Assembly: GCF_037042905.1 (NCBI RefSeq)
Contig: NC_087252.1
Span: 3,784,001 to 3,848,000, forward strand
DNA length: 64,000 nucleotides
DNA from: Lytechinus pictus
Taxonomy: Eukaryota
Direction of reading: 5' to 3'
Shown here in pieces: positions 1 to 30,900 of the stretch. The notes under the pieces were generated by a model that was not told the origin of the DNA, made no database searches, and saw nothing but the letters and a program-made list of their open reading frames with translations. Each line of letters begins with the position of its first letter. Position 1 is the stretch's first letter. A program made the position numbers and the translations under genes.

Positions 1-2829
1 ATTGAGGACTTGTGATTTCCGACAAAGTGTACGGCAGATGTTGAAAATTATTATCCGAGGAGCATTTCATAATCTTTTGTCAACGATTTTCCCTCACTTA
101 GAAGCAGTGCAAATCATTGATTATTTTTTACATGTAGTTATCCCCTTGTTTCTCCCAAAATACATCATTTTTAAATATGCTAAGAAAAAAAAATAGCAAA
201 TTTGTTCTGGTCTAAAACAGTAAAAATCTGCAGGGTTTGATTCGTACAAAATATCTGAGAGATTCCTTGAATTATTAGTTTTTTCGATTTTTACTTATTA
301 ATTAAATCGAAATATAATTCCATGGATAAAATACTTGTACTTTCAGAGGAATCTTGACCTGAATTTTATTTTGGAAAATCTCCTTTTTTGTGGCCCCAAA
401 TATAATCCAAGATTTTGATTTATTTTTGTTTATAAAATATTTAATCCAAAGTCAAATGTCCTGAAACTTCACAACAATATTCTTCTTAAAGATATCTATC
501 TTACTAATGATATACAGCGAAATCCGAATGCTTTTTAAAATATATTTCAGAAGTTGAAAATCTCTTAACTGCCCATATGTAAGGTGCACAATATATTGTA
601 CTCTATTAAGCCCAAGATGTACACTACACATTGAAAGTGGAATTAGGCAGGCCTTGGAGCCGCCTCAACATGTACACATCAGCTTCCTATTTTGTATTGC
701 CAGACTGGACCGAGTCCACCTCGAAGATGATGAGAGTCTGAGAGTCTCGCAATTACCCCCATGGCAGCTGAACCATTGAACTTCAAATATTTATTGTTAA
801 AAATCAACGAGAAAAAGTCATCAAGGACATACCCAAGTGATTTTTATATCAGATTTTAAATTTCTGTACATAATTTACAGGAATTGTATAAAGGGATGAA
901 TAGCTTTGTTGAAAGTAGAAAATTTTGCTACAGAATGAGAGGTTCATGTGCATGTATGCCATATTTCCTAGTGTAAAATCAACAATACCTGAAAATTTTT
1001 AGATGAAATTGAAGTCATTAAATATCTATTTCTGAAAAAAAGTGGCAAATTTCAAGCCTTGTCTTTCATTGATTCGTTGATTGATTCATGTGCATGTAAT
1101 GTACAGTATGTATTTTTACACTTAAAGACACATTAAAATATAACATGATATAAAAGAGTATGAATATAGTCATAAAAGATGCAGGAAAAGTCATTAAAAG
1201 CTAGTTGGATCAGACAACCTAACATAGGGTTAAATATGTTAATGGCCATATACAAACTACAAAGAAACATACAAACCTTGGGATGAGAGTAGACAACAAA
1301 CTCTTGTGTAGGTTAGAGCAGTACCATGTGGTACACACAGAGCTCACTTGTATGCCTGCCAGAAGAATACCGTCCAGACACACATTCTCTTTCAGAAATA
1401 ATTTTTATTGACCACCAAGTCTATGAAGTTCAGGCCATTCCTTTCTGACTTATTAATTCCAATGAGAGGGACAGTGGTTTTCTGTTACCAGTTAATGAAA
1501 AATGGACAATCTACTTATCCTCCATGTCAAAATTCATTGAATACCCAGTATACCTTAATACAAAACAAAATTACAAAACAGACTTTCCACTTTAGATCGA
1601 GTTTGGAACAGAACTACAAATTTCGGAAATGGAAAAGACAGTTTTTGTTTAAACAGAAAATCACTATCCCTACAATAGACTTGAAATTCATCCTGAATTT
1701 GAATCCTGAACAGAATAATTAAAGTGAATTTATAAAAATAAAAAATCCAAATCTGGAACTAGTTTTGCCGAGGTTGATTCTGTTGGGACACATGAATCTT
1801 TTCAACTTTAATTGAAGTGGTATATAACATACACATGTATGTCCTGCATAATCTGGTTATATAAATGATTTTTGCGAATACTCGAGTTACGGAGTTGCGA
1901 AAGTCAACATATTCAAGTTGACCTACATTGTTAAAAGGGAAAGAAAATCAAGAACCATGGGGGAAAATTAAATCATACAAAATTTGCCGAAGGTTTATTT
2001 GCTTACACATAATCTGTCATGCAAATGATGCAGGACAAGTGGACCATTGAATGAAATAATTGGGAAGTTCGAATTGGACCAGGATCATCATTTACTTTGG
2101 GTTGTGTAAGTTTTTAGCAATCCTCTATTAAAGTTCTAGACACTTAACACTCTCACTTGTTAATTAAAATCCACAAACATTCTGTATTCAGTGGTGATTA
2201 AAAGTTGGTGAACCCCAACCAGAAAATGAACATGAAAAAGGTTCTGTCCTGTTTTAGATGTGTCAGGTGATGAAATATTAAGTTCAGTAAAGTTTGTTTC
2301 TCTGGGCTCTCTAAACATATTCGTGTTGTTTTCTACAATCAACATGAAGGAGTGCATTTTGTGGTGGAGTTCACTAACTTTTGAGCAAAACTGTATGGAA
2401 GAACTTTACTTAATGATGATCAATAGATCCTTCTCACAGACTAATTTGCCATCCAACGGTAACTGCCATGGTAACGCTGATCACCAGCCAATCAGAATCA
2501 AGCATACTAGACAAGTTACCATTGAATGGCAAATTTACCATAATGGTAACTTTTGATGCAAACGGGGCTCAGGTGGCGCCAATTAGGAAGCACCTTTTTT
2601 TGTTTCGTCCAGGGGCCTACAGTACTTCTGATTGCTTCTTCACAAATTCAGACTTATCACGGTGCAAAATTTGAAACGTAGGGCAATTCTTATTTTAATC
2701 CGAGCAATGCCTGCTCATGTATATCTCACATGACTTCTTGCAGTTTAGTTGCTCTCTAGGTTACTCCTGTAACATTGATTGTCCTGTCAGCTTTTATAGT
2801 GCAAACTACCCTGCTCTTTTTTCACTCAG

Positions 2830-4253
2830 GTTGGGATTCAAGAAAGCAGAGCTCACATCCAAGGAAGGAAAACACACTGAAAATATCAGGTGATGCATCA
2901 CATGACAGATCAAATGAGGATTTCCCAATCCAAACTGTTCTAGAAAACAATTCTGACCTATCTTCCAGAGGCAATTACTCAAGTGAGTACGACTCTTTTC
3001 TACAAAGGCAAGTGGATTATCCTCAAGAGGAAAGTGTGACTGACAGTGCTACCACTTTCAATGATCATACAGAAGAAATAACGGATTCAGAGGAACGCAG
3101 GGGGAAACGCAAAGCTGCCTTTCGAAAAACCCTTGATGATGGAGCAAGCCCATCGGGAAGCACTGGAAATGATGCTGAAGGAAAACTTTTCATCTGTGCA
3201 GTATGCAGTAGAGGATTTAAAGGGAGGCAAGCTTTGGATAGGCATATGAGAAGCCATTCAGAAGAGATGCCTCACGAATGTACAATCTGCAAGAAAAGAT
3301 TTTGGCAAAGATCTGATCTGAGGAAACATTTCCGAATCCATCCAGAGGGAAAGCCATATTCATGCTCTCTTTGCGAGAAACGATATTTCGACAACGCTAA
3401 TCTCAGAGCACATATGTCGGTTCATAGCAGGAAAAATCATCACCCTTGTTCATTTTGCAACGAGATATACGTGAGCAGGTCTGAACTTGATGCACATGTT
3501 AAAACCCATGCTTATGAGAAACCGTATCAGTGTACGGATTGCGATTTGAGATTTTGTAGCAATGCTGCACTCCAGGCTCATAAGAGAATCCATACAGGTG
3601 AAAGGCCTTTTATGTGCCCCTTTTGCAACAAAACATTCACCACACCTTCTCTGATGAGGACACATTTGAGAATCCACACAGGCGAGAAGCCCTATGAGTG
3701 TTCTGTGTGTGGCGACAGATTTTCCTTCAATACACAACTTGTGGTTCACAAGGCAAAGCACACGGGAGTGAAGCCGCACCTGTGCTCTATCTGTGGAAAG
3801 GGGTTTTGGAGAAAAACCTGTTTAAATAGACATGCAAAGACTCACGCAGGAAAAATTCAACACCCTAAAACCCACGTTGAGGAGAAACCGTACCAGTGTC
3901 CAGACTGCAATTTGAGATTTAAGCGATTTTCTTGGCTTCAGACTCATTTTAGAAGCACCCATAAAGAACAAAATATCAAGCCGTTTAAATGCCGCTATTG
4001 TCCAAAGGCATTTGCCACATCTGGTCAGCTCAAAGTACACACCAGAATGCACACAGGCGAGAAACCGTATGAATGCTCTCAGTGTGGTGACAGGTTTTCC
4101 TTCAACAACCAACTCATGGACCACAAGAACAAACACAGAGGGGTCAAGCCATATTCCTGCCCCGTTTGTGAGAAAGGATTTTGGAGAAAAAACTGTTTGA
4201 ATAGACACATTGAGACTCACGAGAGAAAAAAAGAGAGTGGTCTTGTACCATGA
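2830..4253 (+). CDS. C2H2 zinc-finger terminal exon 1 (Ser/acidic linker + 12 fingers); 5' exon(s) not in window
   Basis: ORF 2775-4253 has 12 C-x2-C-x12-H-x3/4-H motifs with TGEKP-type linkers. Polypyrimidine tract + CAG acceptor (AG 2828-2829, phase 1). The ORF segment upstream of 2830 is probably intronic. AATAAA at 4585-4590. Confidence 0.9.
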
Positions 4254-5514
4254 ATGAAAAGCCATGCTAATTGATCTTGTTGACCTTTGAATACTGCCAT
4301 CACTTGGTACTTTAACCTGTTGCCCAGTGTACAAAGTCTATGGTAATTACAGAATTCAGTATTCAATGGGCTATTAACATTAATCCTGATTTTTTGTTTA
4401 TGTAGATGAAATTATGTTTGCGGTCAGGGTTAAGTTCATAATGCTAGTTCTAAGCTCTTATATAGTAAAAAGTTGTAAAAATGTCAACAGAGCTGTGTTT
4501 GAACACAATTATAGTATATATAGTACAAATATGGTATGGTATTTATTAAATGGATCACAAAGACTGAATTGCAAATTGATATACAATAAATCAAATGGTG
4601 TAAATTAAGTTTTGTAACAGTGGTATCATTTACATAGTAAAAAAGTATACATATATATCACAGACTGAATGCAAGATATAACATAGTAAACCATATTTAC
4701 AATAAAAGGGTAATATAGAACAAACACATTCATGAATAAAACAAAAAAGAAAGAGAGAATGGAGGAGGAGAATGAGAAGAAGAGGTAGAAGAAAAAGGTG
4801 AATAAGGAGAAGAGGAAGAAAAGAAAGAGAAGAAGGCGAAAAAGACAATTGAATTGAAGTTGAATTAAAAAAAGAAGATAAAATTTCATACAACATAATG
4901 CAAATTGGTATACAGCACTGATATGTAAAAGGTAAAATCTTGAATTAGGATTTGTGGTTTGGCAATCGTGAAAACTCATGGATTAGATTTTTTCAAAAAG
5001 TTTAAAAAGTTATGTTTTGCAAGTCGCTTTTCTTGATCAATAAAATTGGTAGTGCAATATCAATAATAGTTGAATGATTGTTTTTCCAACTCTGTATCCT
5101 TTTGTCTGTTTCAGTAATAAATTATAGTATATACATTGTTAAAACAGACCAAATCTCAGTATGAAAAAAATAGCTTGACTATTAACTATCGGCAATATGT
5201 TGAAGGGCAAAAAATCAGGTCTCAAAAGCTTTACACGGTAATAGCTTGAATTATGGTAGAATAACTCTGATGCCTTGCACTCTTGGCCAAAATGTTGGGT
5301 AACTAATGGTGTCTACCAGGAAAATCCCTAGTGTCTCTTCAAGATTTCTAGATAGTTATGAGGATAGATATTAAAGTAGTTCCTTTAAATATCAGCAATA
5401 TGTTGAAGTGTGCATATGACGTGATGTAGCGGTTCTGACTCTTGCCTTTCAATCAGAGGGTCGTGTGTTCATATCCCACCTCACGCTAGCGTCCTTTGGC
5501 AAGATGTTGATCTG

Positions 5515-5660
5515 GGTTCCGTTTCATAAAGACTTGTAAGAGTAACAAATGAACAATTTCTATGACAAGCTTAAAATCAGCCAATCAAATTAAAGGATTT
5601 CAGTAGCTTTGAACTGTTATTGCAAATTTGTTATCGTAACAAGTTTTATGAAACGGGCCA
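5515..5660. mobile_element. PIF/Harbinger-like MITE (CTG TSD)
   Basis: TIRs GGTTCCGTTTCATAAAGACTTGT / ACAAGTTTTATGAAACGGGCCA; CTG at 5512-5514 and 5661-5663. Confidence 0.7.
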
Positions 5661-5818
5661 CTGCATTTGCCACTCCCCACCCAGGTGTAAATCGGATACC
5701 CGGTAGGATGCAAAAGTTATTGTATGTTTGAATTTGCCAGCGCCTTTTGAGGCTGCAAGGAATGCTTCCAAGGGAGTGGGAATTGTGAACCTTAATGCAG
5801 GATTGAAATGAGTGCAAT

Positions 5819-6463
5819 GGGTGATTTCAAGTACGGTGTTGAAATCTGGTGTTGTGACAACACCAACACTAGCCACAACAACGTACTTGAAATCAGGCTG
5901 GTGTTGGGATTGACCTCGAAAAATATGACGTATTTCCGGCAGTTGGTGTTCAATGCTGGTGTTGAATGTCGTCTGCTGAACCCAGCACTGCGGCTGGTGT
6001 TGACGATCTTCGTGCAATTTCCCCATTCACCAACACCAACCCCCAGGGATTGGGAAAATCATGATTTCAAGTTCGGTGTTGGTGTTGGCAATCTCAAGCT
6101 CGTGAACAGGCGGCGAACACGATGAAACATCCCCGTAAAATTAGCTTTTACAGTTTAGATGAGTACAAATCATTTGAGCTGTATATATTTTGATGAAGAA
6201 TAATGTTCACTCTTTCGAATTCTTGAATTAATATTAAAACATTGGTATTCTGTACGATGAGAATTTAATGCATTTCTCTCAGATTTCATTTTCGTCGTCG
6301 AGACTTCTCGCGTGAAGTTGAGATGATTTAGCAGCGCAGCGCAGAGGCGTGACGTCATGTGCTATCGATAGCGCAATCGGTATCATTCCACTGAACTCAG
6401 CTCGGTGTTGGAGCTCGGTTCAGCGGCCTTTTTGCGCTCTCAACACCGAACTTGAAATCACCC
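5819..6463. mobile_element. PIF/Harbinger-like non-autonomous element (AAT TSD)
   Basis: TIR GGGTGATTTCAAGT(A/T)CGGTGTTGA at both ends; AAT at 5816-5818 and 6464-6466; internal GGTGTTG/CAACACC motifs. Confidence 0.8.
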
Positions 6464-7029
6464 AATGACTGGGGTAATAGTATGCTGGAAAGCGCTTTGA
6501 GCTGTATATGGGAAATATAAAAACTGGCTATTATTCCCCAGATATCACATTTTTAATTTCTTGTGCACGATCGATATTGTACTTGTAAGCACACTTGTTA
6601 CGTCAACTTTTGGTATTAGTCCGAAGGGGTGAAACATTGTTAAAAGTGGAAAGATTTGCTTTGGCAGAATGAAAGGTGTAGCATATCCTATTTCCCTTGA
6701 TTTCCTCGGTAGATAGTGTTGCTTACCCGGCAGTTTGGCCCAGAGTGGAAAGCATCAGAGAGTCATTCTACCAGAGTACTTGCTGTCGGGGTGTTACGCT
6801 TTTGAGACATGAATTTTCGCACTTCAACCTATTGAGTGAAAGGAACTACTTTGATATTTATCATAACCAACCAGAGACCATTCATTTCCTAGTGTATGGT
6901 GGTACACTTTTGAGACCTGAATTTTCTTTCCCAATCGATTTGACCTCTGAATCACTACCTTGTCTGTAGTCTTTAGGGAAGGCGTTCAAATTACCTTGTC
7001 TGTGGTCTTCATAGCTTCCTGTCTGATCT

Positions 7030-7128
7030 CGGACCTATCCACGGAGGATTAGTTTATTGTTACTGGGGGTGCTGAGCATTGTCACAGCACCCCCAGTAAC
7101 AATAGATAATCCTCCGTGGCCAGGTCCA
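7030..7128. mobile_element. 99-bp hairpin element with 10-bp flanking direct repeat
   Basis: Near-perfect stem around the loop 7075-7084; TGTCTGATCT at 7020-7029 and 7129-7138. Confidence 0.65.
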
Positions 7129-7177
7129 TGTCTGATCTACATTTTTGCAGTTTGATATTACAACATAAGCTTGCAGC

Positions 7178-7314
7178 TAGGGATGAAGTCTAGGCCGGCC
7201 TCAATGCCTCATTTTGCTCTGGCCTTGGACCGAGATGCATGTCCAAAATCTATGGAATATGCTTCTCTTCAATGGCCTCATGACGAGGAAGTACCAGTCT
7301 TGACTTCATCCCTG
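7178..7314. mobile_element. small hAT-like MITE
   Basis: TIR TAGGGATGAAGTC / GACTTCATCCCTG; no clear TSD. Confidence 0.45.
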
Positions 7315-7524
7315 GTAGATGGAATTGTGATTTTGATCTTGACTGTTGGATTAAGTCGCTACTTGACTGTATTAAAGAGTTTAGCAAAATTCTTGAATTT
7401 GCTTTTACAATCTAGTTTGATTTATTTGTTGAAGAAATGTGCCCCTACCAATGTTGCTTTTGTAAAAAGAATGATTGTCCTTCACTTAGATTTAGTGCAT
7501 GTCACCCTGCTTTTTCGTACTCAG

Positions 7525-8669
7525 GTTGGGATTCAAGAAAGCAGAGCTCATATCAAAGAAAGGCTCAGGAAACATCAGGTACATCACACGAAGAACATCC
7601 TCCACAGGATTTCCCAATCCAAGCTTTTCTCGGAAACCATTCTGATCTATCTACCGGAGGCAATTACTCATGTGAGTATGACTCTTTTCATCAAGGACAG
7701 AGTTTTGCTGACATTGCTACCACGTTAGATCATGATGGTGAAAGATTGGATAGAGACATTACGATGGGCTGTGGTGTGAAAGGTGACAAAACATCAGGTG
7801 AGGCATCATGTGACCGATCACATGCTAAGGGACAAATTGTTGCTGACAGTGCTACAATTTCAGATGATCGTGAAAAAGAAATGATAGGTATGAACTCACA
7901 CAGTACCAAGGAACATGATGAGAAATCCGAAGCCGCCTTTTCAAAAACCCTTGATGCTAGAGCAAGTCCATCGGGAAGCATTGGAAATGATGCTGAAGGA
8001 AATCATTTTATCTGTGCAATATGCAGTAGAGGGTTTAAAGGGAGGCAAGCTTTGGATAGGCATATGAGAAGCCATTCAGAAAAAATGCCTCACAAATGTA
8101 CTGTCTGTAAGAAAAGATTTTTGCAAAGATCAGATCTGAAGAAACATTTTCGAACCCATCCACAGGGAAAGCCATATTCATGTTCTCTTTGTGAGAAACA
8201 GTATTGCGAGAGGAATGATCTCTTAGCACATATGAGAGTTCATAGCAGGAAAAATCATCACCCTTGTTCATTTTGCAGTGGAACATTTGTGAACAGGTCT
8301 TATCTTGATGCACACATTAAAACCCATGTCAGTGTAAAGCCTCACAAGTGTACAGATTGCAATTTGAGATTTTGTAGCAATTCTGTGTTCGAGGAACATA
8401 AAAGAACTCATACAGGAGAAAGGCCTTTTAAGTGCTCCCTTTGTAACAAAGCATTTGCCCAATCTAGTACACTGAGTGCTCATATAAGAATACACACAGG
8501 CGAGAAGCCTTATGAATGTTCTGTGTGTGGTGACAGATTTTCCTTCAATACACAACTTATGGTTCACAAGAAAAAACACACAGGAGTGAAGCCGCACCTG
8601 TGCTCTATCTGTGACAAAAGATTTTGGAGAAAAGGTTGTTTAAATAGACACATGAAGATTCATACTTGA
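7525..8669 (+). CDS. C2H2 zinc-finger terminal exon 2 (8 fingers)
   Basis: ORF 7437-8669. Acceptor AG 7523-7524 (phase 1) is followed by the same GTTGGGATTCAAGAAAGCAGAGCTCA as exon 1. Finger 1 (CSRGFKGRQALDRH) is near-identical to exon 1. Confidence 0.88.
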
Positions 8670-9019
8670 GAAAAGCTCTGTCTGCGATCCATGTGTGGGA
8701 GACACTTTCAGCTAAAGGTTCATTTGAAAGACCATATGAGGACCCACAGAAATGAATTTGTTGGTGTTTGAATTATTTTTCCTGACATTGAAATACTGTA
8801 TTTGTATAAAGAAGATTAAATCATGAGCTAGTATGAACTTTGTGTTTGAGATAATTGGTCATTGATAACGAATGTTTAAACTTTTTAATCTCAGCTACAA
8901 TATTTCCTGGTGCCTTTAACAGACACTCTATATGAATAATAGATCTTTTTCAACTTTATATCACCCAATCACTTCCTTTTAAATTAAGTTGTGGGTACAT
9001 GTCATTTTTCAGTTTCATA

Positions 9020-9750
9020 ACCAAGCAACCATGCCAATACTCTAAAAACAAGCCCAACCAACCTATCATATTCAATCTCATTTAATCAAGCCCAATAAAC
9101 CAGGTCAATAATAATGAAGCCCAACGGCAACCAGCTGCCACTAGGTAATTGGTTATTTACCAGTTTGGTGTTTACCAGCAAAATGCTGTCTTGCTGAGTT
9201 CCTACGAGAGTTACCATAAACAAAATAGAACTATTCAATCAGACCTAACAAACCATCAATGAATTATCAAGCCCAACCAACCATGGAAAAATACCTGATA
9301 ATCAAGCCTATTGAACCAAATATATCAGTATTGTGATGAATTCCATCTAACCCTTGCAATATTTCCTCATCAAACCCTACCATGTTAATAACAAATGATT
9401 AAGGCCAGCCAACCATGTCAACCAATTATCAAGCTAAACTGACCAATCCTGTCATCAAGCCCAATTTTGTCCATAATCAAGACATGAACCATATGAATAA
9501 GGAAGATCAACTAACTACGTGTCCTCAGACTTTATATTCATCCTCAACAAATTTAGTCAGTAATCAAATAAAGTCAAACCACCTATGTGCTTGTTCAATT
9601 AACCCCAACAAACCGTAATCAAGTAGTGAAGCCAACCAACTGACCATGTCAATGGCTAGTCATGAAGCGTTAATGAACCAACCATGTGAATACCAAATTA
9701 GCCAACTAACCATATCAATATCTTGAATTTCCACCTAATCCACCGAATCA
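9020..9750. repeat. degenerate ~30-35-bp minisatellite
   Basis: Recurrent (ATC)AAGCCCAACCAACCATG-like units. Confidence 0.5.
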
Positions 9751-10025
9751 CAAGTGGTACATGTACAATATGTCACATTTATCTTGTGCTAAAACTGGAC
9801 CATCAAAAAGGTTTGGCCTCACATGATGATAGGGAGTTTTTTGCACCGTGATGCAGAACTCGTTAAAACATATAAAATGTATTTGTTAAATGCACTTTAG
9901 ACAACGGGCAACCAAGAATTCATTGTTGAAAATTGGTTAATCAAACAGCAGTTTTTCTGGGAATCTTGATATAAAACGAAATGCAAATATTTGCATTTTT
10001 TGTCAGCTCCGAAACTGCTGTTCTG

Positions 10026-10182
10026 GGGGGCGTTTCATGAAAGGACTTGTCAGACGTTTTATCCGACAAGTCCCATTTTATCCGACAGTTACCATAGTAA
10101 CAGTACCTCCCAGCCAATCAACATCAGAGAAAGATGTCAGATCTGACAACTTGTCGGATGAAAATGTTGATGAAACACTCCC
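10026..10182. mobile_element. Harbinger-like MITE (CWG flanks)
   Basis: GGGGGCGTTTCAT...ATGAAACACTCCC, flanked by CTG/CAG; internal inverted ACTTGTC(A/G)GA motifs. Confidence 0.65.
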
Positions 10183-10401
10183 CAGGTTCTCCAATTTTTT
10201 ACAAAGACCTCCCAGCTGTTCATTGTCCCTGGAAATGCATTTTCAATGTAATCACTACATGTATGTTGTTGAATTTGTTCTATGACGCAGTTTGAAAACT
10301 CACTAATGCATGTATATGAATTAGCCTTCCTAAACCTAACTATCTGGCAATACATTACCCATAGCCAGTTAACATGAAATAAACTAAAAACAACTGACCT
10401 G

Positions 10402-10527
10402 GGTCCCGTAACACAAAGGTTTGCGATTAATCGTACGCTTGATTTTCACTATTGTGTATTGTAGTCAGTGGAATCAATCGTAGAATAGTCTTTGTATGAT
10501 CATTGCTAAGTTTTGTGTTACAGGCCC
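10402..10527. mobile_element. Harbinger-like MITE (CTG TSD)
   Basis: GGTCCCGTAACACAAAG / TTTTGTGTTACAGGCCC; CTG at 10399-10401 and 10528-10530. Confidence 0.65.
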
Positions 10528-10816
10528 CTGGACTTCATGTTAATAGAATATCACACTCCAGAGGATGCTCATTCCAAAGCTGCTGGTTAATAATAACGTC
10601 AAATGGAGGGATAAGAGTATTTTTCAAGTGAAAGTTGCAACATAATTTATTATGCTCAGGAAATTTTTCGGCTTCTGACTACCATCTTTTGTTCCAGAAT
10701 GATTAAGTTACGTTTGTTGACTGTGCAGTGCCCTTGGTAATTACAGTCATGTCAGCATGACAAAACAATCTGTTAAAACCTTGATTCATTGATATCGAGA
10801 ATGTACTCCAGAGCAG

Positions 10817-11088
10817 TGCCCTGTCTTACAAAGAGTTGCGATTGATCCCATCAACCACAAATATAGATGGCCAGCAACATCTTAAATGCCAATTTGTTCA
10901 AAATATTTTCTAGATATGATGCATATTGATTCATACATTCATTGTTCTCTTGAAGATTCAGTGTGAATCTGGTTGTTTACTATTAAAGGAGATTGTGCTA
11001 ATTTACTTTAGAAAAAAATTGAGGTTTGGATGGATTTCCATACAGTTGAGATTAATTGGATCAATCGTAAATCTTTGTAAGACAGCCC
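10817..11088. mobile_element. Harbinger-like MITE; related copies at ~24925-25172 and 43870-49031 (split)
   Basis: TIR CTGTCTTACAAAGAGTTGCGATTGATCC / GGATCAATCGTAAATCTTTGTAAGACAG; body similar among copies. Confidence 0.65.
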
Positions 11089-11385
11089 ATAAGTCCTTCC
11101 CAAAGATGCTCGTCATTAAGGGAAGTTCTTTGAGTAAAATGCATGTACGAGGCAAACAAATACAGGTTTGATAGTCCTGAATTGCTGATGTGAGTATTAC
11201 AGGACAGCATGTTCATTTTTAATTAAATCATACAATTATAAAAAGTATGTAAAAATTTTGGACCACAACCACACTTGTGAAACTGATTCCAGACCGGTCC
11301 AAGTAGTGACATTATTGATACCCAATCAATCGGTGTGGAGTCGGCTTTGGTGGTGTGACTGTAGATTCATTTTGCATATACAAAA

Positions 11386-11657
11386 CGGGGGTGGATCCAG
11401 GATTTTCCAAAGGGCCATTTTTCTGAGGAAAAATTTGACAAGCCAAATAATTAATAAATCTAAAAAAAAGGTTTTCAACCAAAAATTAAGGACAAATTAT
11501 CCACGAAAAAAACTGACAAAAAAAAGGTCTTCTTTCAAAGGGGGGGGGGGGGGGCACGCTGCTGTTTTAACAGCATTTTTACATTACAAATTTTAATTGT
11601 GCCTCTCAAAAGGGGGGCACGGGCCAGCTGTGCCCCCCCCCCCTGGATCCGCCAGTG
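11386..11657. mobile_element. hAT-like MITE (8-bp TSD)
   Basis: CGGGGGTGGATCCAGG / CCTGGATCCGCCAGTG; flanks ATACAAAA and ATACCAAA (1 mismatch). Confidence 0.65.
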
Positions 11658-12248
11658 ATACCAAAGGATTTGATTAGAAGGACAAGAGCTGTCATGAAGT
11701 TGTATTAAAATTGAGTAGTATTTTTTTTCTCTTCAATCCTTACAAGAGGGATTTTATTTGTTCACATAAGTAACATACATGTACAAAACAAACAAATAAT
11801 TTCTTTTTAAGTAACTTTGAATTACTACCTTTAGGTCATAAAATAAATAGCATGAATCTGATGTTTTTCATTTCCAAAACATTTCCTTATATAATTTCTA
11901 TAGATTACAAATTGTGATATTGAATTGAAAATTGAATATCATTAACTATTTTGTTTTTTTACCTTGCACATTCATTTCCTTTTCTCATTTTCTTCTGTCT
12001 TTTCTCTTCTTTGTCTTTGTTTTCATCACCTTATACTATGCAATGTGCAAAAGACTACTTTGTCTGGAAAGGTGATTTTTGTCTGGGATTACTTTAAGAG
12101 TAAATTGACATTCTGTATCATTATGTTAGTTTCGTTTGAATTTACTTGGTGTGTAAAGAAAAGTACCCCTTCCCCTGCTCAATTCTGTTGCATGTGTAAT
12201 AAAGTGACTAGCTTTAGTGCAAATTACATTGGTCTTCTTTTTACTCAG

Positions 12249-13426
12249 GTGGTGATTCAAGAGGGCAGAGCTCACATCAAAAGGAAAGCACACTGAAAAT
12301 GTCTCTTGATACATCAGGTGACACATCACATGACAGACCACATGGGGATCACCTTCCAGAGGATTTCCCAATCCTAGCTGTTCTCGGAAACGTTTCTGAG
12401 CTATCTACCAGAGGCAGTTACTCAAGTGAGTATGATTCTCATCCCATACCAAACCAAGCAGATTATTCTCAATGGCAGAGTGCAACTGACAGTGCCACCA
12501 TGTCGGATGACCATGAAGAAGAAAGATTGGATCTGAAAACAGACAATGCAATGGGACTGGGTGAGAATTGTGAAACTGCCTCTTCAAAGCAGAAATCTTC
12601 CCAGATTTCATCAACAAGAACCGAACAATCAAACCCTTGCATCAATTCTGCTGGAGAACAACTCTTTACCTGTACAGTTTGCCAGAAAGGATATAATCGT
12701 AAGCACAATTTGTACAGGCACATGAGACTCCATTCTGAGGAGAGACCTCATGAGTGCACCTACTGCAAGAAACGATTTTGGCAAAGCAGCGAGTTGAAGA
12801 GACACCTTCGAATCCATACTGGACAGAAACCGTATTTGTGTTCAGTCTGCGACAAACGGTTTCGCGATACCTCTAATCTCAAGGCGCATATGGCAGCTCA
12901 TGTTCGTAAGAGGAGGAAGCATCAATGTTCATTCTGCGATGAGGGATTTCCAACTAGAAATCTGCGAGATGCCCACAGTGCATCAGCTCATCCGAGTGAG
13001 AAACCGTATTGTTGCACGGAGTGTGATATGAGATTTTGCCGTCGTGGTTCGCTCCAGGCACATATTTGGAGAACCCATACAGCTAGAGACAAACCGCATG
13101 TGTGTTCAATTTGCAACAAAGCATTTTCGCATTTGTGTTTCCTCACAATACACAAAAGAATCCACACGGGTGAGAAGCCCTATGAATGTCCCGTCTGTGG
13201 TGACAGATTTTCCTTCCATACCCAACTTGCGGATCACAAAGCAAAGCACACAGGAGTCAAGCCGTATTCATGCTCCATCTGTGAGAAAAGGTTTTGGAGG
13301 AACAGTTGTTTGAATAGACACCAGAGGACCCATACAAAAGAGAAGCCCTTTCAGTGTCCCGAGTGTGGCAAATGCTTTACCGAAAAGAGTTCTCTTATCA
13401 AGCATTTGAATACACACCCACTTTGA
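12249..13426 (+). CDS. C2H2 zinc-finger terminal exon 3 (9 fingers)
   Basis: ORF 12299-13426 reads in frame back to the acceptor AG 12247-12248 (phase 1; GGDSRGQSSHQKESTLKM), paralogous to the starts of exons 1 and 2. AATAAA at 13646-13651. Confidence 0.9.
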
Positions 13427-14047
13427 TAATTTCATGACTTATGCACTTTTGATTGGTTTGCCGAAAAGAAATGAAAGTTTGGGTGATCCTTTTCAGGACC
13501 AACTATTGCTCGAGAAAGAGTTTTGATGGTCCTTTTCAGGACCAACAATCGCTCAAGAAAGATACATGGTGTACCCTGAAACCTACTACACTATTCTTCT
13601 TCATCATGGAAACCTTCAGAAGTTACACTTTAATGCCACCTCCTGAATAAACATGAATGAATTTATTGATTAACTTCCTTCACTTGACATGAACCTTTTG
13701 TTTTATAATATATACGATGATATATGATATAAAGGGAAATCATATTGAATGCTTATTCTCATTTTGCAGACATTCAAATATGACAAATTTGTGCTGCATT
13801 TCCAATAGCATAACAAATCGTGATTCAGAGTAAATCACCACAAACAAAAAATATCAAGCAGAAAAATAAAAAATTTTCCCCCAGAGTCATCAGAAATTAC
13901 CCCAAGTACATGTAGCAACTATGTTTGGATAAATGAACAAAGCATTTTGATCAAGACTCCAGTTCCAATGTCATGATGTAAATGATATTTTCCTGGCACT
14001 CCATATCAATATACCTAACATGTAAAATCTTGAAGATGTTATACATG

Positions 14048-14198
14048 TACCTCAGTCACTTGCTCTACGGCGGCCGTATGCCAAGTAAAAAACAGCCGTT
14101 TTATTCATTCTTAATCAAACTACCTATAAATGTAAAATGTTAAAAAGGCCATTTTCAACTCGCCGTACGGCCACCATAGAGCAAATGTGACTGAGGTA
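14048..14198. mobile_element. palindromic MITE; related copy at 39660-39820
   Basis: TACCTCAGTCACTTGCTCTACGGCGGCCGTA / TACGGCCACCATAGAGCAAATGTGACTGAGGTA. Confidence 0.65.
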
Positions 14199-14292
14199 TT
14201 AGGATCATATAATGTTTAACTGTTAGAAACTGGTTTGTCTTTGTTACTAGGGTTCCACAAGGCCAAGTGTTACCTGCATGTAGTTAAAAAAA

Positions 14293-14558
14293 AGGGGAAG
14301 TTCACCTTGACAAATAAACTTCATTGTAAAAATATCACAGAATAAAATATAAAAATACTGTCAAATGTTTGAGAAAAATCCATCAAAGAATACAGAAGCT
14401 ATTAGAATTTTAAAATATGGGGCAGCTGCTCATTTATGACATCACAAATCCAAGAATTAAAATTCTAGTACATTTAATCTTTAATGCATTTTCCTCAAAC
14501 CTTCACCAATATTTTTTTTCTGTTATTTTTACAATTTTCTTCAGCGTGAACTTCCCCT
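14293..14558. mobile_element. Kolobok-like MITE (TTAA target)
   Basis: AGGGGAAGTTCAC / GTGAACTTCCCCT followed by TTAA at 14559-14562. Confidence 0.6.
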
Positions 14559-14931
14559 TTAAACGTAACACTGAAATGCTGTAGTGTGTGAACTTACATG
14601 TAGCGCCCTGTGACAATACAGGTATTTAGTTTTGAACTATTTGGTATTGTATTTCCTGAATTATGGATGTGTATTAATTAATGTCAAAAAATCTATGCTT
14701 CCAGGCCATGGATTCAATACCATTTCAAAGTAATTTCAAAGTAATTGAGGAAAAGTATCAAAAATTGAATTGAAAAAAAAATGTGTATAAAAACTGTGTA
14801 TTTTCGCTGAAAAGGTGCCTTTGAATAGATTCGTTCGTATACATTTTGATTCATTGATTTCTTGAGAAACAGGGATGTGAAATTGGAAATGAGGAAGTAG
14901 AGTATCTTTCAAAATTGAGTGTAACCCTCAA

Positions 14932-15173
14932 CCTTAAAAGGACTGGGTCATTTTAGATGTATTGAGGACTGGGGCGGGGGCCATGATGGGCCGCCAATCG
15001 TGCTGAAATCTGAGACGCACATTCTTTACCACCTAAACTATAAGCCAGTTTTTAAAAAATTATGAAAATAGTAAATAAAGTTTTGCAGCACTACCTTTTG
15101 TTCGTTTCGGAAATATCACACTAAGTGTTGAGAGGGGGCCATCAAAAGCCCCCCCCCCCCCGTCCTTTTAGGG
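14932..15173. mobile_element. piggyBac-like MITE, related to 51711-52468
   Basis: CCTTAAAAGGACTGGG ... CCCGTCCTTTTAGGG + TTAA. Confidence 0.55.
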
Positions 15174-20232: not shown

Positions 20233-20309
20233 AATTGAGATGATTATCCAATTGAGACATGAGGAGAGAAAAATCAATTTAAACCACTATTTCTTCTATC
20301 ATCAATGAA

Positions 20310-20945
20310 TATGATCATCACCATCACTTCATTATCTTTACCATCCCTACAACCACTAACTTCGTCATCACTTTTGCATCATTCACAACTTCACCGGTAC
20401 ATTCATCTTCATCTTCTACATCTTTGAACACTTTAATTTTCACCATTGTTATCAGCATCATCACTTGCTTTAAAATTCCCAGCATAATCATCTTGCTCCT
20501 CACTATGATAATTACTGGTCATCATCACCAACATCAATACTACCACCACCACCATCAACACCATTATCATTATTATCACCTTCACCACCTTCATCATCAT
20601 TATCATCATCACCATTACCATCATCATCTTTGTCACTATCAGCACCACAATCACTACTATTTCTGCTAACATCGTCATCACTATCATCATCATCATCACC
20701 ACCAACATCATCACCACCCCCATCATCATCATCTCCGTCGTCATCACAATCATCATATATCACAATCATCATCAAAATCATCATCACTATCCTCATCATC
20801 ATCATCCCCACCATTATCACAATCACCACTACCATCATCATCCTCACCATCATTACCATCACCATCATCAGTACTTCTGCTACTGTCATCAATATCACCA
20901 TCATCACACCCAGCACCACTACCACCACAATCATGAACAACATCA
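20310..20945. repeat. (CAT/CAC)n low-complexity tract
   Basis: Direct inspection. Confidence 0.9.
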
Positions 20946-20990
20946 ATCCTAAGCACCTATCACCACATCCTCCTCCCTCTCATTACTTAC

Positions 20991-21170
20991 CACTGGATAA
21001 TGATCAGAGTACATCTCATTCCCTTCATCAACCCACACCATATTCTTGATGCCTTCGTCAGGGTTCATGTTCAGAGTATTCAGCTGTACTTGCATGAAGG
21101 TGAACTTGACCCCTGTTGACACGATGCATTGGGTCACGATGGGTTTCTCAAGGTCAATGGCAGCATCAAC
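20991..21170 (-). CDS. MRPL37: MRPL37 coding exon 7
   Basis: VDAAIDLEKPIVTQCIVSTGVKFTFMQVQLNTLNMNPDEGIKNMVWVD... (mL37 QLNT...EGVKN.AWVD motif); AG 21172-21171, GTAAGT from 20990; 180 nt. Confidence 0.92.
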
Positions 21171-24664: not shown

Positions 24665-26644
24665 CAAATTCAAGTCAATTCAGAGACCAATGCGAGGCAT
24701 ATTTCGGAGAGGCATTTTAGCGTTTTTTAATCGGCGGTTTTCGCCTTATGTATTATTTTCGTTATTTCTGAATGACCCACTGATAATCCCGACATCATTA
24801 CCTTTCCATTGATATATAATAAGACCACATTCATAATCAATATATTTCTCCTTTCAGTAAAATACTTTTTCTTTTATTTCCATGATAATAATAATTCTTA
24901 CTTACCCAGGGGAGTAAGCCCTTCATTCGCCATCTAACAAAGAGTTGCAATTGACCCTATCAATTTCAACTATGGATGGCCAGCAATGTTAACATCTAAA
25001 ATGCATATATGTTCAAAATATTTTCTAGATATGATGTATGTATATTCATACATCTATCGTTCTCTTGAAGAATCAGTGTGATTCTCTTTCTTTGCTTTAA
25101 AGGAGATTGAGCAAATTTCCTGTAGGAATTTTAATTAATTGGATCAATCGTAAATCTTTGTAAGACCGGGCCCTGGTGGTATCTCATAGAGCAACATATA
25201 CTGGTAGTATGAAATATGAGCTATAGGTGCATGTGCACGACAGTTGTAGTGTGCATAAAGCAGCAGAGGAGGGAGGGGGGCAGGGGACCACCCCCCCCCC
25301 CCATGGCATTGCAACTCCCATTGAATTGCAAAGTTACCATGCAACAAAGTACTGGTGGAATCTCATAAAGCTATGTGCAGAGATGCCAACCGTTTTTGCC
25401 GTATTTGTTACGTTTTTTCACCCAAAATACGGCGTTACTTTTTTTCTTTGTAAAATTTGTTTTCTTAAAATTTCGATCGTGTACAATATGCATTGTGTGT
25501 AGCTAGCTGGGTGTTTAAGGCGAGTGTGCATTACGATAGGTAGTGCGGTAATAAATTACGCATTTCTACTAATGTATAAATCCCTAATTTGGTGGTGCTT
25601 TGTGTGCTGGTGCGCGCGCGCGACAACCGATACAGGAGTACTGAGCATAGCTAAAAATTTGGGGGAAGTTGGGTCCGTTGCAAATCTTGCGGATTGAACC
25701 AATCTCATGAAACTTGGCACATAGATTAGTCTTGGTGTGAGGATGTGCAAGACACATTTTTCACGTGTCGGAAACTGCGTTGTCATGGTAACGGGCGGGG
25801 ATATTAATCACCTTCAGTGATATTTCTAGTTTTTCTTTAAAAAAATGTATCATTTGTTATCAGTCTTGCATGACATTGTACATGTAGCTGAAGAAAAGAA
25901 AAGACATTGACCAAGATTGAGCACAGTAGATTTGATCCAGAGTTGTCATTGTCTGGTAGTTTTTCAGCAAGGCTTTTTGTTTTTTATTTACAGGGAATAT
26001 TGTGAAGAAGATCAAAGAGACACATTTTACCATTTCCACAGATGGCAGCTCAGATCGCAGTGCTGATGAACAACTGTACCCAATCATCGTGAGATTTTTT
26101 TGACCATGATGAAAGACAAGTAGTCAGTGTTTTGCTTGAAATCGCAACTACCACACAGCGATCAACTGGAGAGAACATTTTCCTAATGATTGACAGAGTC
26201 CGTAAGGAGAACAGTGTCCCATGGGAACGGGTTTTGTGTTTTTCTGCAGACAATGCAGCCGTCATGATGGGGAGCCTGACTGGGACAGCTGCTTTCATAA
26301 AGAAGGCAAATCCTAACATCTATACACTGGGATGCCTGCAGAGATGCCAACCCTCCCGATTTCATCGGGAGGCTCCCGAAAATTCATCCCAACTCCCGCC
26401 CTTACGATTACCATCCTTATCCTCCCGAAATTACAATTTATTTTGCATTGATCAAATTGGATTGGAAGTACATGTATCGTCTGCTAACTTTAGCATGTAG
26501 AGTGCGCCCTCACCCTTGCTCGGACAACATGTCATCCAGCTAAACCCTTCAAAATTATATCAAATCTGCTGGTGAGAAGTTTTGGTGGTATTTTTCATGT
26601 GAGTAATATTGTTAACTGTAATACATAGATTAAGAGTGAACATT

Positions 26645-27439
26645 ATGCCTTTCAAACGTACTCTAGCAACCCCTGAAAAAGGGATATCCGAACCCCCGGA
26701 AAAATCTAGTGCGTCCAGCGGTTCGCACAGCGAAGTTCAACCCGGTGGGTCCGGGGGAACCGTAGGCGACCAATGTGCTCCAGAGTGGTTTACTTGCTTT
26801 CTTCAGAAGTTCTCAAAGCTGGAAGAAAAAATCGACAACCTTGTGATTAAGAGGCTGGAGGTTATTGCACAAAAGGCCCAGATGAATGAGGAGAAAATTG
26901 AGGCGTGTGGTGTTCAGCTGAATGAAGTTGTAGCTGAGGTGAGAAAGCTCAGGAGGGAAAAAGAGGAGTTGGACGCAAAGTTAGATGATCTCGAGAATAG
27001 GGCTAGGAGGAACAATCTTATCTTACACGGCATCCCTGAGGTAAAGAAAGAAGTTTGTGAGACAACCATTCGTGAGTTCTTGTCTGGTTTTGTTGGGGTG
27101 TCTGAATCTGATTTCACCATTGAGAGATGCCACCGTACCCCTACTGTTAGGCGAGAAGGTCACGATGATTCTAAACCTAGAATTATCCATATTGCCTTCA
27201 CCTCGTATGTGACGAAGGAAAAGGTCAGGAAAGCTAGCATCGCCAAACTCAAAGAGGCAGGTCTGTACAAAGGGAGTCGAGTCTTTGTTTCTGAGGACTT
27301 TTCACAAAAAGTACTGAACAAAAGGAGAGAGAAGAAAGAGCAACGACTTCAGTTGAAGGCGGAGGGGAAAAAACCCTTCTTCATTTACCCGGCAAGACTG
27401 GCCTATAGGGATAAGGACGGGAGGCTAATAATTGTCTAG
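26645..27439 (+). CDS. LINE ORF1p (L1-type coiled-coil + RRM + CTD)
   Basis: ATG 26645; LDDLENRARRNNLILHGIPE, IERCHR and YPARL motifs typical of L1 ORF1p. Confidence 0.9.
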   Translation: MPFKRTLATPEKGISEPPEKSSASSGSHSEVQPGGSGGTVGDQCAPEWFTCFLQKFSKLEEKIDNLVIKRLEVIAQKAQMNEEKIEACGVQLNEVVAEVRKLRREKEELDAKLDDLENRARRNNLILHGIPEVKKEVCETTIREFLSGFVGVSESDFTIERCHRTPTVRREGHDDSKPRIIHIAFTSYVTKEKVRKASIAKLKEAGLYKGSRVFVSEDFSQKVLNKRREKKEQRLQLKAEGKKPFFIYPARLAYRDKDGRLIIV

Positions 27440-27998
27440 CCTGCTGGAGTGTAAATCTAAGACTGTCAAGTTCACAGGACTTTTTTACTGGTTACATGTA
27501 GATTTCTTTTAAATCACCAACTCTAGTTTTACTCTATCTTTCTGTTCTTACATGTGACACCGTAACCATCTAATTCTTGAAATTTTACGAGATATGGTTG
27601 GATTATTTAAAAAAAAAATTTGTTAGAAGATCCCTTTTTTCTAATAAACAAGGCTAACTATATTACTTTAATCAATGTATACCAGCTAGATTTGGTTTTT
27701 TTTTCATGCATTGATATATTTTTTTTTGCTTTCAAACCGTTACACTTGCCAAAACTGTTTTCTGATTTGAAGTTTTGGCACTTTGTGTTTGCACTCTTTC
27801 ATCTTCTGCCAGAATGAAAGTTTTGATATTGTTTTTTACTTTATTTTTTTCTTGTGACAAGTACAGTATTGAAATTTTTTACAATGTTTTAAGATTGTTA
27901 AAATCTTCTCATGCAATGATGGTTTTAAACCAATATGCCAGGTTAATTGTTCCTATTTGTAAGGGGTCTCCTTTTATCAGTGTTTTTTGTGAACATTA

Positions 27999-30900
27999 AT
28001 GTTACTCAAATTATGTACCTTTAATTGTAGGGGTTTGCAAGATTTTGTAAAGCGCAGAAAAATCTTTCACTTTCTACGTAACACTGATTGTGATATTATT
28101 TTACTTCAGGAAACTCATTGTGGTAAAGATGACGAGAAATTCTGGAAATCCCAGTGGGGTGAGCACTGTTGGTTTACTAACTTCTCTTCCAATAGTCGGG
28201 GTGTTGCAATACTAATACGAAATTCTATCTCAGTGAGAATGAAGTCATCCTTCTATGACCCTCAAGGTAGATTTGTAATTCTGAATTGTTTTTTGAATGA
28301 CATACATTTGACTATTGTTAGCATTTATGCTCCCAACAACGATGACCCTAATTTTTTTCTAGAGACATTTGCAGAAATGGACAAGTTTGAAAATTCGTCC
28401 TTAATCTTGGGCGGAGACTTCAATGCCACCCTTAGTGATATTGATTACCAGGGTACAAGACACCGTCATTCAAATGTTAGGGCTAGCAATATGATTTCAG
28501 ATCTCATGGAAGAATACAACTTAATTGATGTTTGGAGACATTTTCATCCAACACAGCGACAATATACACGACATCAAAAGTCTCCCCAAGTTCTCTCCAG
28601 ATTGGATTACATTTTGGTTTCTAGTGATTTTATAGGTAACTGCGTTAAGTCGAAAATATCCCCTGGAATCCAATCTGACCATTCCATAGTATCTATACAT
28701 TTCAACGATAATAGTCCCAAAAGAGGTAAAGGATATTGGAAGCTTAATTGTTACTATTTACATCATGATGCAGAATATATAAATTTGATTAAGGAGAAGA
28801 TCTCTGAATTTAAAAATATTCATAAGGATTCTGAATGTAATCCAAACACTCTGTGGGATGCCCTTAAATGTGTAATTACTGGTTGCAGTATGGAATACTG
28901 TGCCAGAAAAAAGAAAGAAAGGAAAAAAGAAAAGGATCATCTCAATAAAGAAATTGAGATAATGAAGTCTCAACTAAGTGAAAATGTCTCCAAGAATAAA
29001 CAACTTTTAGCAAATATAGCTGATCTGGAAGATAAATTGGATAAATTATATGATTTCGAGACAAAAGGTTTGATAATCAGATCCAGGGTCAGATGGTTAG
29101 AAGAAGGAGAAAAGAATTCAAAATATTTTTGTAATTTAGAAAATAGATCTTGGCAGAAAAAAACTATCAGTACAATCAAGGATGGAGAGGGAAAGTTGTC
29201 TTCTGACCCAGATAAGATATTAAAAGAAATTCATGACTTTTATGAAAACTTGTATAGTAATTCCCAACATCAGAATAGCTCAGATGATAATTTCCAAGAT
29301 CTATTTAATAAGATAAATATTCCTAAATTAACAGATAGTGAAAAAGAATTATTAGAAAAACCACTTTCAAAACAAGAGATAGTTGATGTCATTAAATCTA
29401 TAAAAACCAACAAAGCCCCTGGCTTTGATGGTCTTCCTATTGAATTTTACGTAGAGTTTTGGCCGGATATATGTGATATGCTATTAGATTCTTTTAATTT
29501 TTCTCTACGAAGTGGGATGATGTCATTATCACAAAGAAATGGTATTATAACCCTCCTTCCGAAAAAAAACAGGGATGAACTTTTGATTAAAAACTACCGG
29601 CCTATTACGCTTTTGACGGTTGATTATAAAATATTGGCAAAATGTCTGGCAGAACGTATTAAACGTTTTATTAATTGTCTTATTCATACTGATCAATCTG
29701 CTTTTTTAAGAGGTAGAAACATAAGTCATAATGTACGTTTAATATTTGATATCATAGAGTATACTGAAGCAAATAATATACCAGGAGCTATACTACTACT
29801 TGATATTGAAAAGGCTTTTGACAGTGTAAATCATAATTTCCTTTTTCAGACTTTAAAACAGTTCAACTTTGGGGACAACTTCTTATCTTGGATAAAGACT
29901 CTTTATAAGGAACGTACTTCTTATGTACTAAATAATGGCTTTTTGACTAATCGCATTTCGATGCAACGAGGTATTTTTCAAGGCTGCCCTATTTCTCCAT
30001 ATTTATTTTTGTTTGTTATTGAGATTTTGGCATTATCAATAAGACAAAACGATAATTTGAATGGAATGAAGATACAAGACCATGAAGTTAAAATTTCTTT
30101 ATTTGCAGATGATTCTGTTTGTTTTATAGATGGGTCCAGAAAGTCATTTGATTCATTGTTTGATGTTTTGTACCAATTTGGGAAATATTCTGGATGCAAG
30201 TTGAATTTATCTAAGACTGAAGCAATTTGGATTGGGTCAAAGAAAGGGTGCCAAGACTTCCCCATGAGTAATCAAGGAATTACTTGGAGAAACTCTACAT
30301 TTAAGTCTTTAGGGATAAATTTTTCATTGGATTTGAGTTTGATATTTGATCTTAATTATAAAGACAAACTTAAGCAAATGACACAGACCATAAATTGTTG
30401 GCGGATGAGAAATCTATCTCTTATTGGTAAAATTTGTGTGATCAAGTCTTTAGTCTTGCCTCAACTAATTTATCTGTTCTCTGTGTTAAGTATAAAAACA
30501 CCCCAAAAATATTTTAATGAATTAAATAGTCTTTTTTTCAAGTTTATTTGGAATGGTGGAAAAGATAGAGTCAAAAGAAAATATATGTATAGTGATTATA
30601 TTCAATGTGGCCTAAAAATGATTGATCCTTGGGTTTTTTCTCTTGCTCAGAAAATGTCTTGGGTGAAACTTTTACTTAATGATAAATATGTTTCAGCATG
30701 GAAGTCCATTGAAGTGCTGGCTTTGGAAAAATTTCATAAGGATAACAAAATTTTATGGAAAGCATTTGCCCCAGAATCAATTTTAAAATCTCTGGAAAAC
30801 TCTCAAATAGCTGATTCATTGCGAACTTGGTATGTCTATCGTGAATATGCTACTCTAGAATCATATCACGCTAAATTCTCTGAAATTGGTACTTGTCAGA

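Follow-up and report, generated by a model that had tools for sequence, protein, structure and literature searches.

A candidate series of alternative zinc-finger last exons behind one constant front end in the sea urchin gene LOC129266428

The zinc-finger cassettes of LOC129266428

The window analysed here is a stretch of 64,000 nucleotides of the Lytechinus pictus genome (positions 3,784,001 to 3,848,000 of contig NC_087252.1, written C8 below; coordinates are those of the forward strand). It contains three exons coding for C2H2 zinc fingers, all on the forward strand, which belong to RefSeq gene LOC129266428. The first, e1 (2830 to 4253), has a phase-1 acceptor, a 121-aa linker, 12 fingers and a stop, in an open frame of 473 aa. 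The hybrid internal/last exon e2 (7525 to 8669) has 8 fingers in an open frame of 380 aa, and e3 (12249 to 13426), the last cassette, has 9 fingers in an open frame of 391 aa, with an internal donor motif 177 nt in. The initial annotation had proposed a gene of at least three such cassettes. The three are real, but the description was incomplete: there are nine intact C2H2 cassettes and three decayed ones in the gene, e1 to e3 being the last three with six more intact cassettes upstream of them, and the in-frame internal donors of e1, e2 and e3 had been missed.

The acceptors at 2830, 7525 and 12249 are homologous and in phase 1, as had been reported, all reading ...ACTCAG|GT. The approximately 50 nt of intron ahead of them are also conserved, with pairwise identities of 38/53, 37/53 and 33/52 that exceed all of 500 shuffles per pair in which the last 7 nt were held fixed. 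Neither e1 nor e2 has an ATG near its start; the first in-frame ATG is at 3246 in e1, 7764 in e2 and 12299 in e3. Each exon has its own stop, at 4253, 8669 and 13426, and the poly(A) hexamers listed after the stops at 4585, 8815, 9094 and 13646 are present. The candidate poly(A) signals, on the forward strand, span 4545 to 4590 for e1 (AATAAA at 4585), 8815 to 9099 for e2 (ATTAAA at 8815 and AATAAA at 9094, beyond which sense coverage may extend) and 13646 to 13651 for e3. An additional, earlier ATTAAA is found for e1 at 4545. An RNA contig with a depth of 22.8 stops at 4567, near the e1 signals, which is a hint only.

Four constant coding exons are located upstream of the window, at C8:3757286-3757551, C8:3761387-3761434, C8:3762510-3762787 and C8:3766433-3766552, and encode a 238-aa N-terminus. 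Together with a CpG-rich promoter-like region they are 17 to 27 kb 5' of the window. They are followed by the sole CAAG|GTTTGT donor and then by nine phase-1 acceptors, the cassettes all being collinear, on the same strand and no more than 31 kb from this donor. A candidate micro-exon of 53 nt at C8:3762213 was dropped; it is present in none of the models.

The spacers between cassettes contain no copy of a 5' exon and, in agreement with the annotation, the window holds neither copies of the constant exons nor the donor CAAG|GTTTGT. The annotation had also seen no promoter-like CpG island. There is no promoter-like signal in the spacers, but one bin, 6001 to 6500, is CpG-rich (o/e 1.20). This bin originates from a MITE-like inverted-repeat element (5815 to 6467) with 28-nt inverted ends (5815-5842/6440-6467) and has multi-copy reads from both strands, so that a repeat, and not a promoter, is the likelier reading.

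The intact cassettes have between 2 and 12 C2H2 fingers. Cassettes c1 to c8 lie upstream of the window, and c9 (7 fingers, acceptor at C8:3783027), which precedes e1, has the end of its coding frame at window positions 1 to 15 and a probable 3' UTR at 16 to 1000, both on the forward strand. Trees and dN/dS comparisons identify the cassettes as recent tandem copies of one exon. Four of the five family genes on C8 have at least two finger exons behind one donor. Three paralogous genes (A, D and E) have two cassettes each and gene C has one, with 16 family cassettes in total; the cassette trees do not tell a single origin of the two-cassette state in A, D and E from multiple origins.

The N-terminal domain

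The constant region codes for a small domain, within residues 51-89, and an acidic spacer. BTB, ZAD and SET had been named as examples of domains to look for in shared upstream exons; a shared domain is there, but it is predicted to be RHH-like rather than BTB, ZAD or SET. Pfam shows no BTB in constant exons one and three, nor is one among its precomputed matches for the full-length models; these sequences have no KRAB, SCAN or ZAD matches either, and the domain itself matches no Pfam family at threshold. The PDB sequence search gave one match, with E 1.3. A phmmer search of 1.84 billion representatives returned only proteins of Lytechinus, three in number, apart from two chance matches of repetitive sequence, and the best score of an Atlas search, 0.80, is a lead only.

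The AlphaFold model of the domain (pLDDT 85) is extended at its N-terminal end and forms helices at 11-23 and 29-37. Fold searches with this model list NikR, CopG, TCP, PutA and Arc, and the best matches are RHH proteins, under the significance marks of the tools (Foldseek E 0.15, Z 4.9). The predicted homodimer scores 0.75 versus 0.02 for the best control, with 97% or more of the contacts shared between runs, pLDDT no lower than 92 and contacts 8-5, 8-6, 9-4 and 36-36. The shared domain is predicted to be RHH-like and is modelled as a ribbon-helix-helix homodimer, with the strand-helix-helix order and pairing through antiparallel strands and second helices of Arc, CopG, NikR and plant TCP. 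In benchmarks, 21 of 30 solved microbial pairs (0/23 single chains) attained the homodimer mark, as did 17 of 29 eukaryotic pairs (0/30 single chains), including 7 of 16 animal pairs and 1 of the 7 without an older solved relative. This pass may come from resemblance to RHH dimers whose structures are solved. Unlike known RHH proteins, the domain has no significant sequence match, is fused to C2H2 arrays and is from an animal. The RHH class is given as absent from mammalian transcription factor classes in bioRxiv 10.1101/2022.11.22.517060, and literature searches covering few subscription journals turned up no animal RHH-zinc-finger family. If the prediction is true, an RHH module on animal zinc-finger proteins would join BTB, SCAN and ZAD as a new dimerisation domain.

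Transcription, splicing and selection

Stranded, rRNA-depleted total RNA-seq runs, selected by species label, covered window positions 1 to 15,000. Sense depth was 2.9 for e1, 13.2 for the finger part of e2, 30.8 for e3 and approximately 6.5 for the c9 UTR, versus 0.56 in four repeat-poor spacer bins, placing the e2 fingers at about 20 times spacer depth. This rules against e2 and e3 being untranscribed duplicates, sense RNA-seq over their finger parts being above intron background. The finger part of e1 is also above this background, but weakly, with a depth of just 0.3 to 1.7 in run X21; part of this signal may be pre-mRNA, the libraries being total RNA. The joints and loose ends listed, 15 out of 119 and 24 out of 1879 respectively, stem nearly all from repeats and include no reads joining an upstream donor to 2830, 7525 or 12249 and no poly(A) reads for the window cassettes.

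RefSeq proteins with the common N-terminus end in c1 (P0009), c3 (P0011), c5 (P0017) or e3 (six isoforms). The shared constant region expected upstream is present (C8:3757286-3766552), and the models attach this front end to four distinct arrays of fingers; P0011 and P0007 represent a single accession in its versions.1 and.2. In all six current models e3 is the terminal exon and the e2 acceptor is used, and no RefSeq model retrieved includes e1 or has its 3' end at e2. The proposal that the acceptors share one upstream donor holds in part: the RefSeq front end is common, but e2 and e3 are also reached through stubs, in six out of six current models. All 12 junctions checked are GT..AG. The models are automated predictions, with ambiguous placement among near-identical cassettes, and on this annotation the constant exons are probably joined to the cassettes. 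In a RefSeq model the c2 stub has five residues that are absent from that place in the assembly. Protein searches with the e3 and e1 linkers, run under length limits too short for long isoforms, compared 71 and 94 candidates, none of which matched at E<=0.001.

The arrays of e1, e2, c3, c6 and c9 have kept their open frames, with dN/dS of 0.33 to 0.38 at dS of 0.2 to 0.44; the values are 0.33 (0.21-0.49) for e1/e2, 0.38 (0.20-0.70) for c6/c9 and 0.35 (0.20-0.61) for c3/c9. At the sequence level, this indicates that the finger arrays are under purifying selection, and the expression and selection data support e1 and e2 as translated last exons. DNA-contact residues differ at 35/100 versus 48/250 for other positions (p=0.002; four pairs, two sharing c9). 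Positive selection at the contact residues was not found, pN (0.225) merely equalling pS (0.216).

Most cassettes carry an in-frame internal donor 150 to 270 nt past the acceptor, and e1, e2 and e3 all have one. The candidate in e1 (CAA|GTGAGT, 2983 to 2988, forward strand) is in frame and would leave a 153-nt stub. There are two in e2, on the same strand: CAT|GTGAGT at 7672 to 7677, with a 147-nt stub to e3 in RefSeq X2 and X5, and CAG|GTGAGG at 7798 to 7803, with a 273-nt stub to e3 in RefSeq X1, X3, X4 and X6. The first gives no joint among the 15 of 119 RNA-seq joints listed. For the second, the joint 7797|12249 (GT..AG) is found in four out of four runs, with 3, 5 and 2 reads in runs X19 to X21 and one contig of X1. 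This joint and the sense coverage that continues beyond the donor over the fingers place e2 among the hybrid internal-last exons.

Choice among last exons

We read LOC129266428, with a probability of roughly 0.8, as one gene in which a single promoter and a constant front end serve alternative, tandem-duplicated finger last exons. The promoter, placed near C8:3757100, and the four constant exons would provide the 238-aa N-terminus with its RHH-like dimerisation domain and acidic spacer, and tandem duplication of the finger-coding last exon would have generated the nine intact copies. A transcript would end where a cassette, e1 and e2 presumably included, is read through to its own stop and poly(A) site, so that each isoform would carry a single C2H2 array, with 2 to 12 fingers. 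Where an internal donor is used, the stub alone would be retained and splicing would proceed to a later cassette; entire cassettes could also be skipped. The gene probably makes a set of different transcription factors, which may dimerise, may have different DNA targets and may be subject to regulated choice.

The stub chains could be an unselected by-product, which is compatible with this explanation. The ancestral last exon would have held a latent donor that a downstream copy then made usable, and isoform choice would follow from acceptors and poly(A) sites competing in the ordinary way. Of the 16 family cassettes, 11 have GTGAG at the homologous place, among them the only one of gene C and three that stand last in their genes (A2, E2 and e3); the non-last cassette A1 has lost it. 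When the codons of the internal donor were tested for selection, the result did not discriminate, many codons of the adjoining linker being at least as fixed; linker dN/dS is 0.6 to 1.15 in six of seven pairs, and the 7797 joint accounts for a minority of the reads at e3. Against this, all 14 strong-scoring donors that precede the first finger in genes A and B (11 cassettes) are frame-keeping, many being homologous and not independent, by scores from rough human-type frequencies that serve for ranking only. The different internal donor of the c2/c8 subfamily is likewise in frame, and the same stub types are seen in eight out of eight L. variegatus models, stub chaining thus being modelled in two species. 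On balance we lean slightly towards a by-product.

A more elaborate form of the single-gene reading is offered tentatively. Each hybrid cassette would choose between its internal donor and read-through with polyadenylation, acting as a serial selector in which regulated splicing sets the distance travelled and the array; the products would share an animal RHH domain and could heterodimerise (nine arrays, up to 45 pairs), making this an undescribed RHH-zinc-finger family and a lola-like repertoire evolved independently in sea urchins. The odds are against it as a whole.

It is improbable that e3 alone yields a functional finger array, with the upstream cassettes being duplication debris that gives at most short stubs. 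The six current models that all finish at e3, the highest coverage being that of e3, the three decayed cassettes, and c1, c5 and c8, which have just 2 to 3 fingers each and no poly(A) hexamer within 900 nt past the stop, would fit such a reading, but the open frames and dN/dS of the e1, e2, c3, c6 and c9 arrays, the depth over the e2 fingers and the older models finishing at c1, c3 and c5 speak against it. It is about as improbable that the cassettes are separate genes, or have their own promoters and are trans-spliced to the constant exons as in mod(mdg4), which could accommodate the older model P0019 beginning at ATG 12299, the common clustering of C2H2 genes in tandem and the inability of mature-mRNA junctions to separate cis- from trans-splicing, but not readily the spacers lacking 5' exon copies or a promoter-like CpG island (one repeat aside), the collinear, same-strand order of the cassettes at no more than 31 kb from the donor, or the stand-alone ATG-started cassette frames, 0/7 of which are on record as protein.

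The single gene with alternative last exons has known counterparts. The Drosophila genes broad, fruitless and tramtrack share with lola (longitudinals lacking) the scheme of constant 5' exons and alternative finger-coding last exons, and LOC129266428 does likewise, with RefSeq ends at c1, c3, c5 and e3 in automated models. Like lola it has a protein-interaction domain, in the urchin a predicted one, in the constant part. Unlike lola, its constant region has no BTB, its arrays are of 2 to 12 tandem C2H2 fingers where lola variants have one or two, its cassettes arose by recent tandem copying of a single exon and include hybrid exons with internal donors, and its host is a deuterostome. The urchin locus works like lola and is not a BTB-family member. 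For lola, PMC10551640 gives 20 last exons, 17 with fingers, constant 5' exons and separate 3' UTRs, and calls the choice among many last exons by a cell open. In Drosophila mod(mdg4), common exons are combined with over 30 alternative variable exons at the 3' end (PMC13490949). That gene employs trans-splicing from independent promoters, whereas the urchin cassettes are collinear and give no hint of promoters between them. Hybrid internal-last exons take an internal or last role by internal donor versus poly(A) site, as PMC8769537 sets out, and e2 resembles these composite terminal exons in having an acceptor common to both uses.

Genes of the KRAB, FiNZ and ZAD types have a small N-terminal domain on its own exon, a finger array on one last exon and tandem expansion (PMC10547256). 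They expand mainly as whole genes, whereas in the urchin the last exon expands behind one promoter. This would be a second route to larger poly-zinc-finger repertoires, in which only the last exon is duplicated and which escapes gene counts and current annotation; RefSeq now puts eight of the nine arrays in introns. Literature searches covering few subscription journals gave no account of the LOC129266428 locus or of such a locus in echinoderms, and passages of PMC3784565 and PMC2604467 contain nothing on such a locus. With several hybrid exons in succession, in a sea urchin amenable to genetics, last-exon choice becomes testable by mutating donors one at a time.

The family acceptors begin with GT in 14 out of 16 cases. 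Putative recursive re-splicing at such acceptors could add further hops between cassettes that leave no trace.

The cassette array of gene B

Three C2H2 finger exons, e1, e2 and e3, have acceptors at window positions 2830, 7525 and 12249, all in phase 1, and each carries its own stop with hexamers downstream, as the initial annotation described. Their open frames encode 473 aa with 12 C2H2 fingers, 380 aa with 8 and 391 aa with 9, respectively. The intron before the acceptors had also been called conserved, and homology between the intron ends does exceed what chance would give. Among 16 family cassettes the three form one clade (support 99/97 for DNA, 100/98 for protein), with 60% protein identity between e1 and e2 and 45-51% between e3 and these two. 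A donor-like site follows finger 4 of e3 (12990-12996), and its L. variegatus counterpart joins finger blocks of successive cassettes in gene models.

The exons belong to RefSeq LOC129266428 (gene B). The shared constant region expected upstream is present as four coding exons (C8:3757286-3766552, C8 being contig NC_087252.1), the last with a phase 1 donor, CAAG|GTTTGT. In a 45-kb scan by 500-nt bins, the bin that contains the first of these exons was the richest in CpG (o/e 1.45). The window covers C8:3784001-3848000, and in the 120 kb searched upstream of it the same type of acceptor heads six further intact cassettes: c1, c3, c5, c6, c8 and c9 (2, 7, 3, 7, 3 and 7 fingers, respectively). 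Three more cassettes there, c2, c4 and c7, have decayed; none was found downstream of e3. Part of the array was made by block duplication, for example of a 1956-nt block at 92% identity. The spacers between cassettes contain neither constant-exon copies nor the CAAG|GTTTGT donor, in keeping with the earlier statement that no upstream exon is repeated there. The reading of one constant region joined to alternative finger last exons was largely right and the feature is real; a probability of about 0.8 is given to a gene with alternative last exons.

Directly upstream lies gene A (C8:3737225-3751291), with two finger exons of 8 and 9 fingers. Genes C, D and E form a second family cluster (C8:240000-325000); they carry the RHH-like motif in their first exons and have 1, 2 and 2 finger exons, respectively. 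In each of A, D and E, a single CAAG|GTTTGT donor precedes two finger exons; C has only one finger exon. The multi-cassette layout is thus shared by four of the five family genes.

Transcript models, RNA and cassette choice

Of 42 candidates in the first-exon search, 11 protein clusters matched, every one of them from Lytechinus pictus or L. variegatus; cluster look-up placed 18 proteins in 10 of these. RefSeq isoforms X1-X6 of gene B map exactly to the contig, except for five residues of one stub (the 5' part of a cassette kept when its in-frame internal donor is used) in X1 and X2. All six isoforms begin with the same 238 residues, run through the c3 stub, variably those of c2, c8 and c9, and a 147- or 273-nt e2 stub, and finish in e3; e1 is absent from all six. 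Three nr-only models, presumably built on an older assembly, attach this front end directly to whole c1, c3 or c5. In L. variegatus, 8/8 models string together the same types of stub; these models have the e3-type cassette in several copies, and they also have a splice exit from the finger array after finger 4. All these models are automated predictions; their junction types should reflect RNA, and their full-length exon combinations may not.

Among the family genes, RNA evidence concerns gene B, and covers window 1-15000 with three stranded total-RNA runs, sampled at about 6%, and the contigs from a fourth run. Mean sense depth over the finger parts was 2.9 in e1 and 13.2 in e2; e3 reached 30.8 and the 3' region of c9 6.5, against 0.56 in four spacer bins chosen as repeat-poor. 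A GT..AG joint leads from 7797 in e2 to 12249 (3, 5 and 2 reads and one contig); the joints listed, nearly all from repeats, include none from the upstream donor. Given the 7797 joint and the depth over its finger part, e2 serves as an internal exon and is also read through. At e1, one contig piece stops at 2857 and another starts exactly at 2830. With 31-letter words, these ends indirectly suggest two spliced paths into e1, whose donors would end in AG in one case and in a letter other than G in the other, as those of the stubs do.

Reads from runs X19 and X20 differ from e2 in a cluster at 8301-8364 (13/13 at 8301 and 8303) that replaces the Tyr at contact position +3 in finger 4 by Lys; they come from an allele, or from a copy missing from the assembly, in which this contact residue is altered. 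In RNA run X1, the e2 linker carries an extra 12 nt, in frame, at 7582.

Most likely, a transcript would commit to a cassette when the internal donor is passed over and the RNA continues to the stop and poly(A) site, while use of that donor, or skipping of the cassette, would hand the choice to those downstream. The odds are slightly better than even that stubs arose as a by-product: the internal donor motif is ancestral, occurring in 11/16 cassettes including single and last ones, its codons are under no special constraint, and linker evolution is close to neutral. Such an origin is still compatible with stubs setting isoform ratios.

Selection, the constant domain and related systems

Current models imply that e1, e2 and the upstream arrays are just intronic, in which case drift would be expected. 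Instead, finger-region dN/dS is 0.33 (0.21-0.49) for e1/e2, 0.38 for c6/c9 and 0.35 for c3/c9; the c5/c8 interval takes in 1. Differences between arrays concentrate at helix positions -1, 2, 3 and 6 (35/100 vs 48/250, p=0.002), where pN equals pS, so that positive selection at these contact positions is not shown. Together, the low ratios and the contact-position differences indicate that the arrays are being preserved at the protein level and that their target sequences probably differ.

For residues 51-89 of the constant region, no Pfam family reaches the threshold. Four other finger genes on C8 begin with related motifs (gene C only at E 0.14), and for the only occurrence on contig C1 (13421716-13421838, reverse strand) no finger frame was found in the 30 kb examined. 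The AlphaFold model from six sequences (pLDDT 85, pTM 0.51) has an extended segment and two helices. Its nearest solved folds, all under the tools' significance marks, are NikR, CopG, TCP, MazE, PutA and Arc, most of which are RHH proteins. A homodimer prediction passed, scoring 0.75 against 0.02 for the best control, with antiparallel strand pairing. RHH-like dimerisation is predicted as likely but unproven.

Gene B appears to work like lola (PMC10551640), but is an analogue rather than a member because no BTB domain was found in it with Pfam. It differs from mod(mdg4) (PMC13490949) in that nothing points to internal promoters. Single hybrid exons are already known (PMC8769537). Within limited library coverage, no description of such an arrangement in echinoderms was found in the literature.

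Other features of the window

An apparently intact LINE retrotransposon, its family judged by eye, lies at 26603-31763 on the forward strand, with a 278-aa frame resembling ORF1 and a 1256-aa frame resembling an endonuclease/reverse transcriptase. Several broken hAT-type transposase-like frames, also judged by eye, occur at 32283-37166 (forward strand) and 26093-26500. Long CAT/ATC-type microsatellite tracts (20283-21049 and 42224-42861) produce spurious open frames. A separate, frameshifted C2H2 array on the reverse strand (62088-63999) runs past the window end.
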